Assembly: GCA_903881505.1 (NCBI GenBank)
Contig: CAIRTM010000075.1
Coordinates: 20,878-84,877, forward strand
From: an uncultured delta proteobacterium
GTDB taxonomy: Bacteria; Desulfobacterota; WTBG01; CAIYCZ01; CAIRTM01
DNA: 64,000 bases
Direction: 5' to 3'
The notes beneath the pieces are model-generated. The model searched no databases. It was not told the DNA's origin and was given only the letters and a program-made list of their open reading frames with translations. Shown here in pieces: positions 2,537 through 51,878 of this stretch. Position 1 is the stretch's first letter; each line of letters starts with the position of its first letter. Both the position numbers and the translations under genes were made by a program.

Positions 2537-2618
2537 GGTGTTTCTCCTGCTGTATCTATCGGGCTGTTGAAAAACGCCCGTTCTCCGTAAAAGGTCTCCT
2601 GCGGAGGACGGGTCCTAT

Positions 2619-2642
2619 AGGGGCGAAAAATTTTTCGCCCCT
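2619..2642. terminator. Perfect 24-nt palindrome AGGGGCGAAAAATTTTTCGCCCCT. Bidirectional rho-independent terminator downstream of folD, separating it from cdhD-cooS.
   Basis: 12-bp GC-rich stem flanked by an A5/T5 core, about 45 nt 3' of the folD stop. Confidence 0.7.
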
Positions 2643-2685
2643 ATCCAGGCAGGCACAGGGGCCAGACCCTACTAACACCTCATTT

Positions 2686-8261: not shown

Positions 8262-8376
8262 GAGATGGTCCCTCTGTGGTCCTGAAATTCAGCCCTGTGC
8301 TTCGTGTGCCGGCAGAAGCAACCAGGTGGACGTAAAGGCTGGTGAAGTCGTAAAAAGTTTGAAAATGTTACGCTTA

Positions 8377-8440
8377 GTCATTCCGGCGCAGGCCGGAATC
8401 CAGGGATTTAAAGTGCGCGGACAAAAAACTGGACACCAAT
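8377..8440. repeat. Palindromic intergenic element GTCATTCCGGCGCAGGCCGGAATCCAGGGATTTAAAGTG. Possibly a distant relative of the 3695/54036 repeat family.
   Basis: Begins with the same GTCATT hexamer, followed by an 8-bp hairpin ATTCCGGC/GCCGGAAT. It lies in the fhs-cysK intergenic region. Confidence 0.4.
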
Positions 8441-8611
8441 CTTAACCGGTGCGACGACTTTTTACGGCTTCATCAATAATTAACGTTCTTCGCCTGAACG
8501 TGCCTGTGGCAGTACGCGCATCAGCCGGAGAAGCGAGAACCGCTGTGCCGCACGACTATATATATAGGGAAGGCAGTATATTTCGCGGAAGTATTTTTGT
8601 CAAACCGCAAA

Positions 8612-10769: not shown

Positions 10770-11005
10770 GGTAATGCCGGCGGGGGGCAGGGGCCGCAAA
10801 AAACATTTGTCCATTTCTTTGCCCACTCCAACGAAATGACTCAAAGGGGGCCCTGCACCGCAGTCCGCCTGGAGCGGATGCCCTCGCCGAGCGCACGCAC
10901 GCGCGGGCGTCTGTACGGACGAAACAATTCGCCCTCTTACCCTGGCCGGTAGTGATCCCGCCATGACGGAAAAAACGCAGCGGACAGACCTTTGTCAGCA
11001 GCCTG

Positions 11006-12691
11006 CTATACCCGCGTAAGCTGGCGGTACTTGATGCGGTGGGGCTGGTCTGCGGCGGTGCCAAGCCGGCGATGCCGGTCCTCTTCGTATTCGCTGTAAT
11101 TGCCTTCAAACCAGAAGGCCCTGCTGTCGCCCTCGAAGGCAAGAATATGCGTGGCGATGCGGTCGAGAAACCAGCGGTCGTGGCTGATCACCACCGCGCA
11201 GCCGGCGAAATTTTCAAGACCCTCCTCCAGCGCGCGCATGGTGTTCACATCAAGGTCGTTGGTCGGCTCATCCAGCAGCAGTACGTTGGCCCCCTCCTTG
11301 AGCATACGGGCCAGGTGCACCCGGTTGCGCTCGCCGCCTGAAATTGCACTTACTTTTTTCTGCTGATCAGAGCCTGAAAAATTAAACCGCGAAACATAGG
11401 CGCGCGCATTCATTTCCCGCGTTCCAAGCGTAATGTTCTCCCTGCCGTCTGAAATCATTTCAAAAATGGTTTTATCGGGGTCAAGCACATCGCGGCTCTG
11501 ATCAACGTAGGTCAGCTTGACGGTTTCACCGATACGAATGCTTCCCGCATCAGGCTGCTGCTGGCCCGTGATCATCCGGAACAGGGTTGTTTTACCCGCG
11601 CCATTTGGACCGACAACACCGACGATGCCGCCCGGCGGCAGCGCAAAGCTAAGGTTTTCAACGAGCAGGGTATCGCCAAACCCCTTTTTTACATTTTCAA
11701 ACTGTATGACGATATCGCCCAGGCGCGGACCCGGCGGAATATAGATCTCAAGATCGCGCGCCTGCTGCTGGTTCTCCTGCGACAGCAGCGACTCATAGGA
11801 ATTAACACGGGCCTTGGATTTGGCGCGCCGGCCCTTGGGCGCCATTTTGATCCATTCAAGCTCGCGCTGCAGGGTCTTCTGGCGCTCGGTAGCCTGCTTT
11901 TCCTCCTGTGCAAGGCGCTTCTGCTTCTGGTCAAGCCAGGACGAGTAATTTCCTTTCCAGGGAATGCCCTCTCCGCGGTCAAGTTCCAGGATCCAGCCGG
12001 CGACATTATCCAGAAAATAGCGGTCATGCGTTACGGCGATAACCGTGCCGGCATAGCGCTGCAGATGGTTCTCGAGCCATGCCACGGTTTCGGCGTCGAG
12101 ATGGTTGGTTGGCTCGTCCAGCAGCAAAATGTCGGGCTTTTTCAGCAGAAGGCGGCACAGGGCCACGCGCCGGCGCTCGCCGCCTGATATGACCTTCACG
12201 GGCGTATCGCCGCCCGGGCAGCGCAGCGCATCCATGGCCATCTCAAGGCGCGCGTCCAGATCCCAGGCATCCAGCGCGTCAAGGCGCTCCTGCACCGTAC
12301 CCTGGCGCGCAAGAAGCTTTTCCATGTTTTCGTCGGACATGGGCTCGCAAAACTTCTCGTTGATCGCGTTGAATTCCGCCAGCAGATCAACGGTTTCCTG
12401 CACGCCCTCCTCAACGACCTCGCGCACGGTTTTATCATTGTCAAGCAGCGGCTCCTGCTCGAGGAAACCGATTGTGTAGCCTTCCGAGAGCAGGGCCTCG
12501 CCGTTGAACTCATGGTCAATGCCGGCCATGATGCGCAAAAGCGTGCTTTTACCCGAGCCGTTCAGGCCCAGCACGCCGATCTTCGCCCCGTAAAAATAGG
12601 ACAGCGAAATGTCTTTGAGCACCTGCTTCGTGTTATGAAACTTGCTCACCCGCATCATGGAATAGATTACTTTTTTATCATCAACGCTCAT
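11006..12691 (-). CDS. ettA: ABC-F family ATPase, energy-dependent translational throttle EttA-like. Two ABC cassettes, no transmembrane domain.
   Basis: [18 protein letters not shown]...[23 protein letters not shown] plus a second cassette [17 protein letters not shown]. Start at ATG 12691 with a perfect AGGAGAAGG RBS. Confidence 0.85.
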
Positions 12692-12809
12692 ACAAATGCC
12701 TTCTCCTGAATTGTTCCGATATGCCAATTTTTCCGCCCGGCGTGATAAAATCCGCAGACGGTCTTATCTGTTATAGCCTGAAACACTATATGAAACGGTA
12801 TCTGCGAAG

Positions 12810-12964
12810 CACGTGTAAAAAGGCCGCAGGCAAGGCGTGCAAATCCGAAGGAATGCGGCGTACATTTGGTACGCCGCAGTGACTGGGGAAGCAGCACAAC
12901 GCAGCCCTTCGGCGAAGCTCAGGGCCGTGAGCCTGTCGAACGGCATCCGGTCTTTTTACACGTG
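12810..12964. repeat. About 155-bp element bounded by 17/18-bp inverted repeats (CACGTGTAAAAAGGCCG ... CGGTCTTTTTACACGTG). It contains an internal 10-bp-stem hairpin (TGCGGCGTAC...GTACGCCGCA). Candidate MITE or structured RNA between cysE and ettA.
   Basis: Left arm 12810-12826, right arm 12947-12964, seen directly in the sequence. No convincing ORF inside. Confidence 0.55.
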
Positions 12965-12966
12965 CT

Positions 12967-13893
12967 TCATATGTAGTACATGTAGACGTCTGCCGGCGCA
13001 AGCTGATCCCTGCCCTTATACACCAGATTGGGCGGCTGATGCGTGATGGTCGTGTCCGGCGGGATCGATTCGAGCAGCCAGACATTACCGCCGATAATGG
13101 AATTTTTCCCTACGACCGTATCGCCGCCCAGAATAGTCGCACCCGCATAGATCACGACGTTATCCTCGATGGTGGGGTGGCGCTTGCCGCCCTTGACAAT
13201 TCGGCCGTCCTGATCCTTCTTGAAGCTCAGCGCGCCCAGGGTAACGCCCTGATAGATGCGCACGTTGTCGCCGATCTCTGATGTTTCGCCGATAACCACG
13301 CCGGTGCCGTGATCGATAAAAAAACGTTCGCCGATGTGCGCGCCGGGATGGATGTCAATGCCGGTTGCGCGGTGGGCAAACTCGGTCATGATGCGCGGGA
13401 TCAGCGGCACATCCAGATGGTAGAGCTCATGGGCGATGCGGTACACGGCGATCGCCAGCAGGCCCGGATAGCTGACGATGATTTCATCAAAGCTGCGCGC
13501 GGCCGGATCGCCTTCATAGGCGGCCTCCACGTCGCCGGTCAGCTTCTCCCGAACCGCGGGTATCGCTCCCAGAAACGCGATTGTTTTCGCGACCGCCTGC
13601 TCGGCAAGACTTTCTGCCGCATGGTCAGCGCCTTTCAGGCTCTTTGCAATTTCATGGGCCAGGCTGTGGTACATCGAAACTGTTTTTTCCCAGATATAAA
13701 GCCGGATCTCCGAGCGGCTCATTTCCTGTTTTTCAAAATAGCCGGGGAACAAAACGTTGATAATATCCTGAACGATCTCCTCCACGGCAGCGCGGCCGGG
13801 CAGGTTGGCGCCCTCGATGTGGTTGATGCCGCGGTCGGTTGCGTAGCTGTCAAGAATCTGCGTGATGATATGGGCAAGCTGCTGTGAAGGCAT
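12967..13893 (-). CDS. cysE: Serine O-acetyltransferase.
   Basis: 308 aa. C-terminal hexapeptide-repeat left-handed beta-helix region (GVVIGETSEIGDNVRIYQGVTLG...) and N-terminal SAT helical domain. Confidence 0.85.
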   Translation of the reverse strand: MPSQQLAHIITQILDSYATDRGINHIEGANLPGRAAVEEIVQDIINVLFPGYFEKQEMSRSEIRLYIWEKTVSMYHSLAHEIAKSLKGADHAAESLAEQAVAKTIAFLGAIPAVREKLTGDVEAAYEGDPAARSFDEIIVSYPGLLAIAVYRIAHELYHLDVPLIPRIMTEFAHRATGIDIHPGAHIGERFFIDHGTGVVIGETSEIGDNVRIYQGVTLGALSFKKDQDGRIVKGGKRHPTIEDNVVIYAGATILGGDTVVGKNSIIGGNVWLLESIPPDTTITHQPPNLVYKGRDQLAPADVYMYYI

Positions 13894-13899
13894 GTCCGG

Positions 13900-15084
13900 C
13901 TACCCTGCCTGCGGCGGCAGCTCGTCGCGGCCGAAAGGCGACAGTTCCCGCAGCCGCCGCTCAATGCGCAGCATGTTCTCGACGATATAGTCCACGTCTT
14001 CAGCCGTCGTGTACCGGCTCAGGCTGAAGCGCACCGAGCCGTGCACGCGGGTAAACGGCACGCCCATGGCTCGCAGCACATGCGACGGCTCAAGCGAGCC
14101 CGAGGTGCAGGCAGAGCCCGACGAGGCCGCAATGCCGGCCTCGCTGAGCAGCAGCAGGATCGATTCGCCCTCAATATATTTAAAGCTGATATTGGCCGTG
14201 TTGGGCAGCCGGCCGGCGGTATCGCCGTTCACCGAGGCGTCAATGGCGCGATCGAGCAGGCTTTTCTCAAGACGGTCGCGCAAAGCCCTAACCGTTGTAT
14301 TCTCGGCATCGATGCACTCCCGGGCCAGTTCGCACGCCCTGCCGAGGCCGACGATGCCGGGCACATTCTCCGTTCCTGCCCGCCGCCCGAGTTCCTGATG
14401 GCCGCCCAGCAGCCAGGGCGAAAAGTGCGTGCCCTTGCGCACGTACAGCACCCCGACGCCCTTGGGCGCGTGCAGTTTATGGCCCGATATCGACAGCAGG
14501 TCGATCGAAGAGCCGCCCAGATCTATCGGGATCTTGCCGGCCGCCTGCACCGCATCACAGTGAAAAACCGCTCCGGCAGCGCGCGCCATCACGGCCGCCT
14601 GCTCGACCGGAAAGAGGACGCCGGTCTCGTTGTTGGCCCACATCAGCGACACAAGCGCGGTATCATCGCTCAAGACCTCGCGCAGTTCATCCAGGTCGAG
14701 CCTTCCTTCACGGTCGACGGAGAGCTCGCTCACGCGGTAGCCGCTCTGACCCAGGTATTGAAAAACATTTTTCACGGCCGGATGCTCCACGCGGGACGTA
14801 ATGATGTGCCTTTTGTCCGGCGTGGCCGCCAGCACGCCGCGAATGGCGGCGTTATCGCTTTCCGTGCCGCAGGAGGTAAAAATAATTTCAGACGGCTGCG
14901 CTCCCAGCAGCGCCGCCACCTGGGCGCGGGCGCGGTCGATGTGCTTTTTTACCTGCCCGCCGAACTGGTGCATGCTGGAGGGGTTGCCGTAGAGCCGGGT
15001 GAAAAACGGCTGCATGCTTTCAAGCACCTCGGGCGCGGTCATGGTGGTTGCGTTGTTGTCGGCATAGACCTCGCGGATGCTCAC
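13900..15084 (-). CDS. nifS: Cysteine desulfurase, NifS-type.
   Basis: VYADNNATT N-terminus, the SGHKLHAPKGVGVLYV lysine-PLP motif, and the active-site loop SSGSACTSG. GTG start overlaps the nifU stop (GTGA). Confidence 0.9.
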   Translation of the reverse strand: MSIREVYADNNATTMTAPEVLESMQPFFTRLYGNPSSMHQFGGQVKKHIDRARAQVAALLGAQPSEIIFTSCGTESDNAAIRGVLAATPDKRHIITSRVEHPAVKNVFQYLGQSGYRVSELSVDREGRLDLDELREVLSDDTALVSLMWANNETGVLFPVEQAAVMARAAGAVFHCDAVQAAGKIPIDLGGSSIDLLSISGHKLHAPKGVGVLYVRKGTHFSPWLLGGHQELGRRAGTENVPGIVGLGRACELARECIDAENTTVRALRDRLEKSLLDRAIDASVNGDTAGRLPNTANISFKYIEGESILLLLSEAGIAASSGSACTSGSLEPSHVLRAMGVPFTRVHGSVRFSLSRYTTAEDVDYIVENMLRIERRLRELSPFGRDELPPQAG

Positions 15085-15926
15085 GGCTTTACCTCCTCAA
15101 CATAAAGAGCGGGGCTGACGAATTCCTTCAGCTTGGGCTCAATGTATTTTTTCAGCGTAAACGATGAGCTGGCGCATGACGAGCACATGCCCCGGAGCGA
15201 AACCACGACCCGATCGCCGTCAACATCGATCAGCTCGATATCGCCGCCGTCAGCCTTGAGCATGGGCCGGATTTCGTTTTCAAAGGTCTGCTCGATCAGC
15301 TTCATTTTTTGAATATTGGTCAGCTTCGCGGCCGCGGGTTGCGCAGCGGCAGGCGCGGCCTGCGGGGCGATCCGGTCAAGAATCTCCTGTATGCGGCCGT
15401 GGCACTGGCGGCAGCCGCCTCCGGCCTTGGTATAATTGGTGACATCCTCGATTTTCCTGAGAGCGTTGTCCCGGGCAACCCGCTCGATTTCTTCAGCGGT
15501 CACGCCGAAGCATTCACACACAATCTGCTTTTTGCCCGCGGCAGCCTCCTGCGCGCTCACCCCGCGATAATTCAGCACGGCCGCTTCGAGTGCTTCATGC
15601 CCCATAACCGAGCAGTGCATTTTCTCGGCAGGCAGGCCGCCGAGATAGTCGGCGATATCGCGGTTGGTTATTTTTTCCGCTTCGCTCAGCGTTTTACCGA
15701 TAATCATTTCGGTCAGCGCGGAGGCCGATGCTACCGCGCTGCCGCAGCCGAAGGTCTGGAATTTCGCATCCGTGATAACTTCATTCCCGTCAATTTTGAG
15801 CATCAGCTTCATCTGGTCCCCGCAGGCAAGGGAGCCGGCCTCGCCGACAGCGTCGGCATCGGGGATATCCCCGACATTGCGGGGATTCATGAAATGCTCT
15901 TTTACCTTGTCGGTATAATCCCACAT
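15081..15926 (-). CDS. nifU: Three-domain NifU Fe-S scaffold: IscU-like N domain, central BFD-like 2Fe-2S domain, C-terminal Nfu domain.
   Basis: The sequence contains GSLACGDQM, FGCGSAVASASALTE, CECFGVTAEE...GGGCRQCHG and a C-terminal ...GMCSSCASSSFTLK. Confidence 0.9.
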   Translation of the reverse strand: MWDYTDKVKEHFMNPRNVGDIPDADAVGEAGSLACGDQMKLMLKIDGNEVITDAKFQTFGCGSAVASASALTEMIIGKTLSEAEKITNRDIADYLGGLPAEKMHCSVMGHEALEAAVLNYRGVSAQEAAAGKKQIVCECFGVTAEEIERVARDNALRKIEDVTNYTKAGGGCRQCHGRIQEILDRIAPQAAPAAAQPAAAKLTNIQKMKLIEQTFENEIRPMLKADGGDIELIDVDGDRVVVSLRGMCSSCASSSFTLKKYIEPKLKEFVSPALYVEEVKP

Positions 15927-51155: not shown

Positions 51156-51878
51156 ATGCAAAAACAAACATCTGTTCCCGAACACCCGGTCATCGGCATC
51201 CTCGGCTGGGAAGACAGCAACACGGCAAGCATATACGGCAGCATCGCCGCTCCGGGCACCTTTTCGTTTCCCGTCCTGTTCATGCCCGTCACCGGGGCCT
51301 GTTATGAAACCGTTATTGCACACCCGGACCGGCGGATATTGAATGCGATGCTTGCGGCAGCCAGGCACATGGAAAAATCCGGCGTCAAGGCGATAACCAC
51401 CAGCTGCGGGTTCAACGCCATATTCCAGTCCGACCTTGCCGGAGCGGTTTCTGTGCCGGTAGTTACGTCCACCCTGCTGCTGATCCCGTTTATCGCCGGC
51501 GCCATCGGCGGCGCAAAAAGGATCGGCATTATAACTGCCGACAAAAATCACCTGACCCGCGGCCTTCTGGAAAAATCAGGGGTTTCCGGCCAGACGCCTC
51601 TGTGTGTCTACGGCATAGAAAAAACCGCAGCCTATCCCCATACCTGCCAGAATGCGCGGCCCGAACTGGTGGACCGGGACGAGTTCCGCAGAGAGGTGAC
51701 CGGTATCGCGGAATTGATGGTTACTGAAAATCCCGACCTGGGCGCCATTGTCCTGGAGTGCACCATTTTGCACGTCTTTGCAGACGACATCAAACGTATG
51801 ACCGGGTTGCCGGTATTTGATATCGTCTCCCTCACCAATTACATGTACAACGCCGTTGCGCGCAGTACTTCACCCTGA
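51156..51878 (+). CDS. Asp/Glu/hydantoin-racemase-superfamily protein (Asp racemase / maleate isomerase / arylmalonate decarboxylase-like).
   Basis: 240 aa with two conserved Cys in ITTSCGFNA and VLECTIL contexts, and an N-terminal IGILGW. 37 nt after the flavoprotein stop. Confidence 0.6.
   Translation: MQKQTSVPEHPVIGILGWEDSNTASIYGSIAAPGTFSFPVLFMPVTGACYETVIAHPDRRILNAMLAAARHMEKSGVKAITTSCGFNAIFQSDLAGAVSVPVVTSTLLLIPFIAGAIGGAKRIGIITADKNHLTRGLLEKSGVSGQTPLCVYGIEKTAAYPHTCQNARPELVDRDEFRREVTGIAELMVTENPDLGAIVLECTILHVFADDIKRMTGLPVFDIVSLTNYMYNAVARSTSP

Follow-up and report, generated by a model that had tools for sequence, protein, structure and literature searches.

The window, that is, the whole 64-kb stretch of DNA that was analyzed, carries on its minus strand the genes nifU (positions 15081-15926), nifS (13900-15084), cysE (12967-13893) and an ettA-type ABC-F gene (12691 to 11006), in this order. 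Identical CysE was found only on metagenome contigs, and the nearest named homologues belong to Deltaproteobacteria/Desulfobacterota MAGs. Gene calls in identical contigs place the ettA start codon (12689-12691, minus strand) 276 nt after the cysE stop codon, leaving a spacer of 275 nt. A repeat search of the window detected an inverted repeat in this spacer, with 26-nt arms at 12806-12831 and 12943-12968 that are 88% complementary. The arms share an exact 17-nt core, GAAGCACGTGTAAAAAG. This 17-mer has two sites in the 64 kb, both of them arms of the element, and 0.09 sites were expected. Between the arms, a 10-bp hairpin was found at 12854-12863/12869-12878, in agreement with the initial annotation.

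We folded both strands, as the initial annotation had proposed, and both were far more stable than shuffled sequences. The cysE-sense strand gave -79.9 kcal/mol (z = -6.4) and the opposite strand -88.3 kcal/mol (z = -7.2); 0 of 200 shuffles were as stable as the element. A covariance model of the family described below matched the window copy at 12800-12934 with 71.3 bits (E = 2.9e-13). The idea that the repeat is a chance inverted repeat without significance was discarded, since it is ruled out by the arm occurrences (0.09 expected, 2 observed), the two fold z-scores and the family membership at 71 bits. A scan of the whole window against Rfam (release 15) at the gathering threshold, also proposed before, returned no match. 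At E ≤10, positions 12600-13100 and two canonical family copies gave noise only.

The inner hairpin served as the motif for a genome scan. The exact pattern TGCGGCGTAC-N4-7-GTACGCCNCNTTCC was searched for in one-genome-per-species contigs and detected at least 120 loci in at least 93 assemblies. Among the matches listed, 20 assemblies had two to four loci each, and the isolate Desulfosarcina cetonica JCM 12296 had at least three. The host orders among the matches listed were Desulfobacterales, Syntrophales and Desulfobulbales, along with three Nitrospirota and one Rokubacterium. Hosts among these matches included Desulfosarcina, Desulfococcus, Desulforapulum, Desulfatirhabdium, Syntrophus and Smithella, as well as Syntrophobacteraceae, Desulfocapsa, Desulfurivibrio and Desulfatiglandales. 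The covariance model (model R1), built from 63 canonical copies, revealed eight extra copies in the same 0.7 Mb, none of which had been detected by the exact pattern. At least 10 matches lay within ~100 nt of a true contig end, as expected of repeats that break assemblies; copies at such ends were seen at L014, L019, L027, L047, L060, L070, L079, L084 and L098, and at the L004 end. This suggests that repeats of this family routinely break short-read assemblies of Desulfobacterota MAGs.

No further copy was found in the 64-kb window by blastn or by an arm-pattern search. When the covariance model was run on the window with filters off, it returned this copy and, through its arms, a second type of element (B-type). 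The B-type element, at window positions 8335-8480, has arms TGGTGAAGTCGTAAAAAGT and ACTTTTTACGGCTTCATCA of the same arm superfamily around an unrelated core, GTCATTCCGGCGCAGGCCGGAATCCAGGG. A near-identical B-type unit is present in the cysE-ettA spacer of L005, L006 and L128. PLSDB plasmids gave no blastn match, and the arm specific to the window had no match in JGI metagenomes. A search of the Desulfobacterota literature for a family of this kind found no description. As judged from Rfam 15 and the searchable literature, with ISfinder and the repeat databases outside this scope, the family is apparently undescribed, which is not proof of novelty.

Read on the strand equivalent to cysE sense, family members have the order L1, a core of ~70 nt, R1, a linker and R2. 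L1 is GAYGGnTTCGTAAAAAGnCC. The core consists of CTGCGTTGCGC ... ATCCYTCGTCAC, the hairpin TGCGGCGTAC-loop-GTACGCCTCA and then TTCCTC-RGGAT ... GCGCGCCTTGC. Arm R1 complements L1 across the family and is followed by a linker of 8-12 nt. R2, GACTTTTTACGAGTTCATC, is an imperfect inverted copy of L1 and is well conserved between genomes. The family ends are L1 GAYGGnTTCGTAAAAAG and R2 ...CTTTTTACGAGTTCATC, and the terminal inverted repeats are formed by GAYGGnTTCGTAAAAAGTC of L1 and the reverse complement of R2, GATGAACTCGTAAAAAGTC. Members are 135-180 nt long and non-coding, with reading frames broken by variable loop lengths and inserts. Their consensus structure is built from an outer stem and two short helices, to which an internal helix (P3) and a hairpin (P4) are added. 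Orthologous spacers have the inner hairpin and the neighboring core in common, and their closing stems differ. Extra small hairpins were seen at varied points of the core (L009, L024, L033, L081, L045/L091/L119 and L013 4261-4436), and in L013 4261-4436 the extra hairpin takes the place of P4. These additions resemble the variable stems of structured RNAs or nested mini-palindromes.

For a test of target-site duplication, the ends were set as GAYGG...TTCATC. Flanking direct repeats agreed at 6/6 positions in 21 of 36 copies and at 5/6 or more in 30 of 36. When the flanks of different copies were paired in permutations, a mean of 5.2 and a maximum of 13 copies reached at least 5/6. The per-position profile of the duplication had a sharp peak at length 6, few copies having 7, and the target consensus was A-(A/T)-N-N-T-T. 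More duplications were found in the extra copies L085, L064 and L013 (TTTTGT, AAGTTTT and AATGAT). Thus, multiple copies, inverted ends and 6-7 bp target-site duplications together mark a MITE family; with the small size, four MITE features are present at the family level. The initial annotation had favored a MITE from the letters of this one spacer, and the family bears this out: it occurs in many genomes, with several copies each, inverted ends, duplications, unrelated neighbors and both orientations.

A different mode of movement was weighed, in which the element is a REP/BIME-like unit (REPIN) moved by a RAYT-type tyrosine transposase and not a cut-and-paste MITE. REPs are mobilized by RAYT and are not known to make target duplications. 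Like REP, BIME and REPIN units, which have GTAG or CGTC tags, the present family is intergenic and palindromic. The arms of its main subfamily begin with GACG and end with CGTC, resembling the CGTC tag described for one REP superfamily; REP elements are described as 20-40 bp long (PMC3733652). Against this stand the clear 6-7 bp flanking duplications, the length of 135-180 nt with a complex core of 70 nt instead of a 20-40 nt palindrome, and the second arm class (see below) and the window copy, in both of which the CGTC tag is absent. We regard a REPIN as very improbable and keep the MITE reading.

Next, we analyzed the surroundings of the copies. Copies adjoin unrelated genes in both orientations. 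Gene ends facing the element were 3' ends in 81 cases and 5' ends in 71. Copies were arranged in tandem with their neighbors in the two orientations (20 and 14), between convergent genes (8) and between divergent genes (5). No bias of the copies for a gene end or an orientation was seen. Neither a gene-specific RNA nor a dedicated terminator fits these family marks.

The context also bears on the alternative given in the initial annotation, a locus-specific RNA made up of a cysE 3'UTR with terminator and an ettA 5' leader that attenuates the ABC-F gene. The position between cysE and ettA, the very stable fold and the retention of a spacer element in all close relatives would suit such an RNA. 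However, the same element stands beside unrelated genes in both orientations in at least 93 assemblies, and no specific link of the family to ABC-F genes was seen. The closest relatives (L128/L005/L006) have lost the core and yet keep ettA, and in L005/L006 a family copy also follows ettA. Neither a terminator-like hairpin with a U-tract nor an Rfam leader was found in the window element, and in the family G·U pairs are not in excess over A·C. Attenuation control of ettA is thus already largely refuted, and we give it hardly any weight next to the MITE reading.

If the family is one of MITEs, a transposase acting in trans would have moved the element. An autonomous parent of 1-2 kb would be expected to have the ends GATGAASTCGTAAAAAGTC. 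Searches of 0.94 Mb of flanks and of viral contigs revealed neither an autonomous IS nor a transposase whose ends match. Long-range arm pairs turned out to be adjacent elements and not an IS, and the ORFs beside solo arms were ordinary metabolic genes, with no transposase among them. Recurrent neighbor proteins were sigma-54 activators, RND pumps, ABC ATPases and acyl-CoA synthetases, with no transposase partner. A scan of viral contigs with the R2 consensus yielded one more small element, located at the end of a contig, plus four chance matches inside a phage gene. Parentage by ISL3 was considered and rejected, since the duplication measures 6-7 bp instead of 8.

Comparison with the family changes the anatomy of the window copy (all features on the minus strand). 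The initial annotation had described a 155-bp element with 17-bp terminal inverted repeats. The repeat is real; its arms are 26 nt long, and comparison with the family extends the element to ~12790 through a degenerate third arm, TACCGTTTCAT, so that its length is probably ~179 nt rather than 155. The visible 17-bp pair exists as well, as the internal stem of L1 and R1; the ends flanked by duplications in other copies are those of L1 and R2. The left arm L1, GAAGCACGTGTAAAAAGACCGGATGC (12943-12968), is homologous to the family arm GAYGGnTTCGTAAAAAGnCC via a graded series in orthologues. It is followed by a 38-nt hairpin insert, CGTTCGACAGGCTCACGGCCCTGAGCTTCGCCGAAGGG (12905-12942), without counterpart in the 63 canonical copies. 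This insert shifts the covariance-model alignment of the window left arm, and it recurs at the same core position in L118, the arms of which differ. The conserved family core, CTGCGTTGYGC ... TCGTCAC-hairpin-TCATTCCTC ... GCRCGCCTTGC, occupies 12832-12904 and contains the helices P2, P3 and P4. P4, the inner hairpin used for the scan, has the sequence TGCGGCGTAC-caaat-GTACGCCGCA (12854-12878), and a compensatory variant, GCAGCGTAC/GTACGCTGC, is present in L075. The inner right arm R1, GCCTGCGGCCTTTTTACACGTGCTTC (12806-12831), was detected as the complement of L1. It pairs perfectly with L1 over 17 nt, where the orthologous arms in L129 and L130 have two to three mismatches.

The 38-nt hairpin (window 12905-12942, ...CAGGCTCACGGCCCTGAGCTTCGCCGAAGGG) resembles a CTGAGC...GTCGAAGGG palindrome in an element at positions 1-120 of L208. 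This hairpin may represent a tiny palindromic repeat in its own right that became nested in MITEs. At window positions 2617-2644 and 51775-51836, we also noticed palindromes, perfect or nearly so, that have A/T tracts (e.g., ATAGGGGCGAAAAA/TTTTTCGCCCCTAT). These look like ordinary bidirectional terminators and gave weak, non-significant covariance-model matches.

The outermost parts of the window copy were assigned by analogy with the family. The linker and degenerate outer arm R2, GCAGA-TACCGTTTCAT, would lie at 12790-12805, its position after R1 being that seen in the family. The segment TACCGTTTCAT (12800-12790) is identical to R2 of L085 (CTTTTTACCGTTTCATC) and is followed by ATAG. By the family rule, the left duplication is a 6-7 bp A(A/T)NNTT sequence that ends in T and stands just before the GA of the element. 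Accordingly placed, the presumed left copy is ACATAT on the cysE strand (12969-12974). The flanks of the window element read ...ACATAT|GA on the left and ...TTTCATATAG on the right. The right duplication is presumably reduced to the remnant CATATAG, together with the displaced old cysE stop codon TAG (12786-12788), within 12786-12792; this assignment requires a 5-nt deletion. The duplication of the window copy itself is thus a 5-nt CATAT remnant. From here, ~100 nt lead to the ettA start codon.

The left junction coincides with the end of cysE. The last T of the presumed left duplication is the first base of the cysE stop codon TGA (12967-12969; ORF 12967-13893), and the GA is provided by the first two bases of the element. 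Because the outer arm starts at 12968, this GA lies inside the stem, where it pairs with TC at 12806-12807. With T as the last base of the duplication and GA as the first bases of the element, each insertion writes a TGA at its left junction, and a mirror-image TGA is present on the other strand at the R2 end. An ORF of at least 100 codons ended exactly at the junction in 23 of 92 copies, in comparison to 0-3 at other positions, and cysE of the window is one of the genes with a junction TGA. A further class of ORFs ends at a TAA inside GTAAAAAG, and likewise at the R2 end. In L008, L031, L048, L057 and L087, which use the junction TGA, the bases after the right duplication are AA, AG or GA, indicating that the insertion cut through an old stop codon, which was thereby restored. 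When the element lands in the AT-rich final codons of a gene or in its stop codon, the gene thus still ends correctly. The junction stops may reflect targeting of AT-rich stop-codon neighborhoods or the survival of harmless insertions. Rickettsia palindromic elements (RPE) are inserted in frame inside genes and translated. Both they and the present family are palindromic repeats that join reading frames; here, however, the element supplies stop codons and ends the frame at its first bases.

We then compared orthologous cysE ends. A family element was present at the cysE stop codon in all relatives with at least 89% CysE identity and additionally in L007 at 86%; the occupied sites were L129, L130, L128, L131-134, L004 and L007, and L005/L006 had the left arm. 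Absence from relatives, which the initial annotation had named as evidence against the element, was therefore not observed at or above 86% CysE identity. The site in L129 reads TAA|CGCATTCGTAAAAAG, and that in L130 is similar. In L128, L005 and L006 it reads TGA|AGCACTCGTAAAATG, with the core deleted and the left arm alone kept. In these three, the core is replaced ~40 nt after the cysE stop codon by a run of nine C (GTGCCCCCCCCCTGCGG), which is followed by unrelated repeats. Thus, the core is dispensable in that lineage. In L133, it is partly deleted. In L131-L134, L004 and L007, an element of the second arm type is bordered by short stubs of the first type (TGACGC(G)TT(C)GG ... AAACGCGTTC), an arrangement that could have arisen by nested insertion or by conversion between family members.

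Relatives with at most 76% CysE identity lacked the element and had no ettA downstream. Their element-free cysE genes end with ...TATATGTATTATATATAA (or TAG), an AT-rich target, and include ...ATATAA and ...ATTTAG endings. Among the relatives compared, no clean empty site was found, the element-free ones (≤76%) being distant and non-syntenic. The left arms form a graded series from the consensus GACGGCTTCG through AACGCATTCG (L129), AACGCACTCG (L130) and GAAGCACTCG (L128) to GAAGCACGTG in the window. R1 follows this series, and two to three of the first 10 positions are mismatched in L129 and L130. The window copy has changed at two positions on both arms, and three mismatches were resolved in it, which gives the perfect 17-bp stem. 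Between the window and L129, identity amounts to 86% for the element, 83% for cysE DNA and 66% for the remainder of the spacer.

The presence of elements at the same site in relatives indicates that the window copy is old and probably immobile. The insertion would have occurred in the common ancestor of the clade with at least 86% CysE identity. Landing at ...ACATAT|AG, the element would have displaced the old stop codon TAG to 12786-12788, and a later 5-nt deletion would have shortened the right duplication. The predicted end of cysE before insertion is ...TACTACATATAG-TGTTTCAGG.... After insertion, the outer arm R2 probably decayed, and the L1:R1 stem and the core were kept. We conclude, with a probability of about 80%, that the window element is an old, probably immobile copy of a MITE (a non-autonomous DNA transposon), and that its family is spread across Desulfobacterota and a few other phyla of anaerobes.

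Many copies contain the same core between other arms, (T)AG-CAGGCTGTTGAAAAACG. On either side of this second arm class stands CTAG, TTAG or TTAA, and the flanking repeat is perfect in four of ~12 copies with a recognizable outer arm. The TAG or TAA in the flank is the stop codon of the upstream gene. On evidence weaker than that for the main subfamily, this points to a core that moves between two kinds of ends; the second arm class could be of the IS630-derived (Correia/RUP) type. Since the same core occurs in the second arm class with a different flanking repeat, it may have a function of its own. A relic, CAGGCTGCTGACAAAGGTCTGTCCGCTGCGTT (window 10974-11005, minus strand), was noticed directly after the ettA stop codon TAG (11006-11008). 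It corresponds to the left arm of the second arm class plus the initial bases of its core. In L005/L006, this place holds a complete copy, and in L007 it holds another relic. In the window, cysE and ettA thus both end against family elements.

The conservation of the core and stem requires separate consideration. In the consensus fold, 92.1% of the cells were paired, as compared to 35-46% when partners were slid. The covariation score was 0.362, versus at most 0.078 for slid and 0.12 for shuffled alignments. All five pairs of P3 show double changes. The pairs comprised 1643 Watson-Crick, 33 G·T, 62 A·C and 82 other combinations, and the mismatch in the hairpin is C·U. With 33 G·T against 62 A·C, no RNA strand can be named: there is no sign of an RNA from the cysE-sense-equivalent strand and at most a weak, 2:1 hint at one from the other strand. 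The core and P3 show stronger conservation and covariation than would be needed in a plain MITE. At the cysE site, a divergence no faster than that of cysE, together with matched arm substitutions, indicates that the fold is maintained.

Several causes could have kept the stem paired. One candidate is selection on a folded RNA or DNA, e.g., as a stable stem-loop, a transcription stop or an insulator between cysE and ettA. Another is quasipalindrome correction by template switching; in one event, such a switch would use one arm as the template for the other and so account for the perfect 17-nt tract. The third candidate is conversion from other family copies. Selection, template switching and conversion all fit the data.

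A rival explanation assigns a function to the core. According to it, the ~70-nt core and its closing stem are a functional structured RNA or single-stranded DNA that was spread by transposon ends and is host-selected at the locus; the core could be a mobile bidirectional terminator, an RNA-stability module, or a protein-binding or catalytic RNA, perhaps of a new class. The strong covariation, including P3, argues for such a function, as does the finding that two arm classes with different flanking repeats carry the same core. Unpaired core columns are at least 90% conserved across orders, but this invariance is partly due to ascertainment, since 22 core bases were fixed by the scan pattern. 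Within the arms, conservation is highest in the AAAAA-stem-TTTTT frame. In the comparison with L129, the element diverges as slowly as cysE, in contrast to the rest of the spacer (66% identity), and its arms show matched changes in situ. On the other side, the mismatches have no RNA signature (33 G·T, 62 A·C and 82 other), the copies show neither an orientation bias nor a 3'-end preference, and no Rfam family matches. Moreover, L128/L005/L006 have lost the core, and part of it is deleted in L133.

The conserved A5-stem-T5 frame suggests a terminator role. As the criterion for an intrinsic terminator, we used a short G+C-rich hairpin with a loop of 3-8 nt and a U-tract directly after it. In the element, the T5 tract follows a branched domain of ~110 nt and not a simple hairpin. 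A scan detected no canonical terminator or promoter, and no terminator hairpin was found on either strand in 12500-13200. The absence of a gene-end or orientation bias weakens the terminator idea further. On balance, we think it rather unlikely that the core is a functional module that rides on at least two kinds of transposon ends, was seeded at gene boundaries across phyla and has been kept by selection.

Among known small elements, Correia (Neisseria), RUP (Streptococcus pneumoniae) and Nezha (cyanobacteria) have a TA duplication and an IS630-type origin. In contrast, the main subfamily described here makes a 6-7 bp A(A/T)NNTT duplication, so an assignment of this subfamily, including the window copy, to the IS630-derived type was rejected. 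The present family also differs from these three in its inner arm R1, its core conserved across orders and the lack of a known parent IS. Bacterial MITEs in general are short non-coding elements that occur in multiple copies and have inverted ends, target duplications and long stable hairpins; they are mostly intergenic and can overlap gene ends (PMC10969869, PMC3184786). All these features are shared by the present family. Chunjie, a MITE from Geobacter uraniireducens Rf4, is 178-235 bp long, with 21-bp inverted ends and 9-bp direct repeats (PMC3184786). It occupies A+T-rich sites, forms a very stable hairpin, has copies overlapping genes and can sit in an operon (PMC3184786, PMC10969869). 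Both Chunjie and the present family are MITEs of the former Deltaproteobacteria with A+T-rich sites, a stable hairpin and gene overlap; they are set apart, by description, by the length of ~135-180 bp and the 6-7 bp duplications found here. Another small interspersed repeat has a fold that resembles a terminator (PMC10969869, PMC3049150). The A5-stem-T5 frame, present on both strands, is similar, whereas canonical terminator geometry and a 3'-end preference were not found in our family.

For the window, these results provide no evidence of a special control of ettA. Hundreds of elements of this family are probably present in the genomes and MAGs of sulfate reducers and syntrophs, where they break assemblies, create spurious ORFs and, in about a quarter of cases, set the stop codon that a real gene uses. 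Annotation would benefit from a name and a covariance model for the family. The junction, at which a target T and the GA of the element make TGA, illustrates how a transposon can land harmlessly on gene ends. The family also poses a question, in that its core and stem are conserved across orders and are kept paired at a fixed locus.
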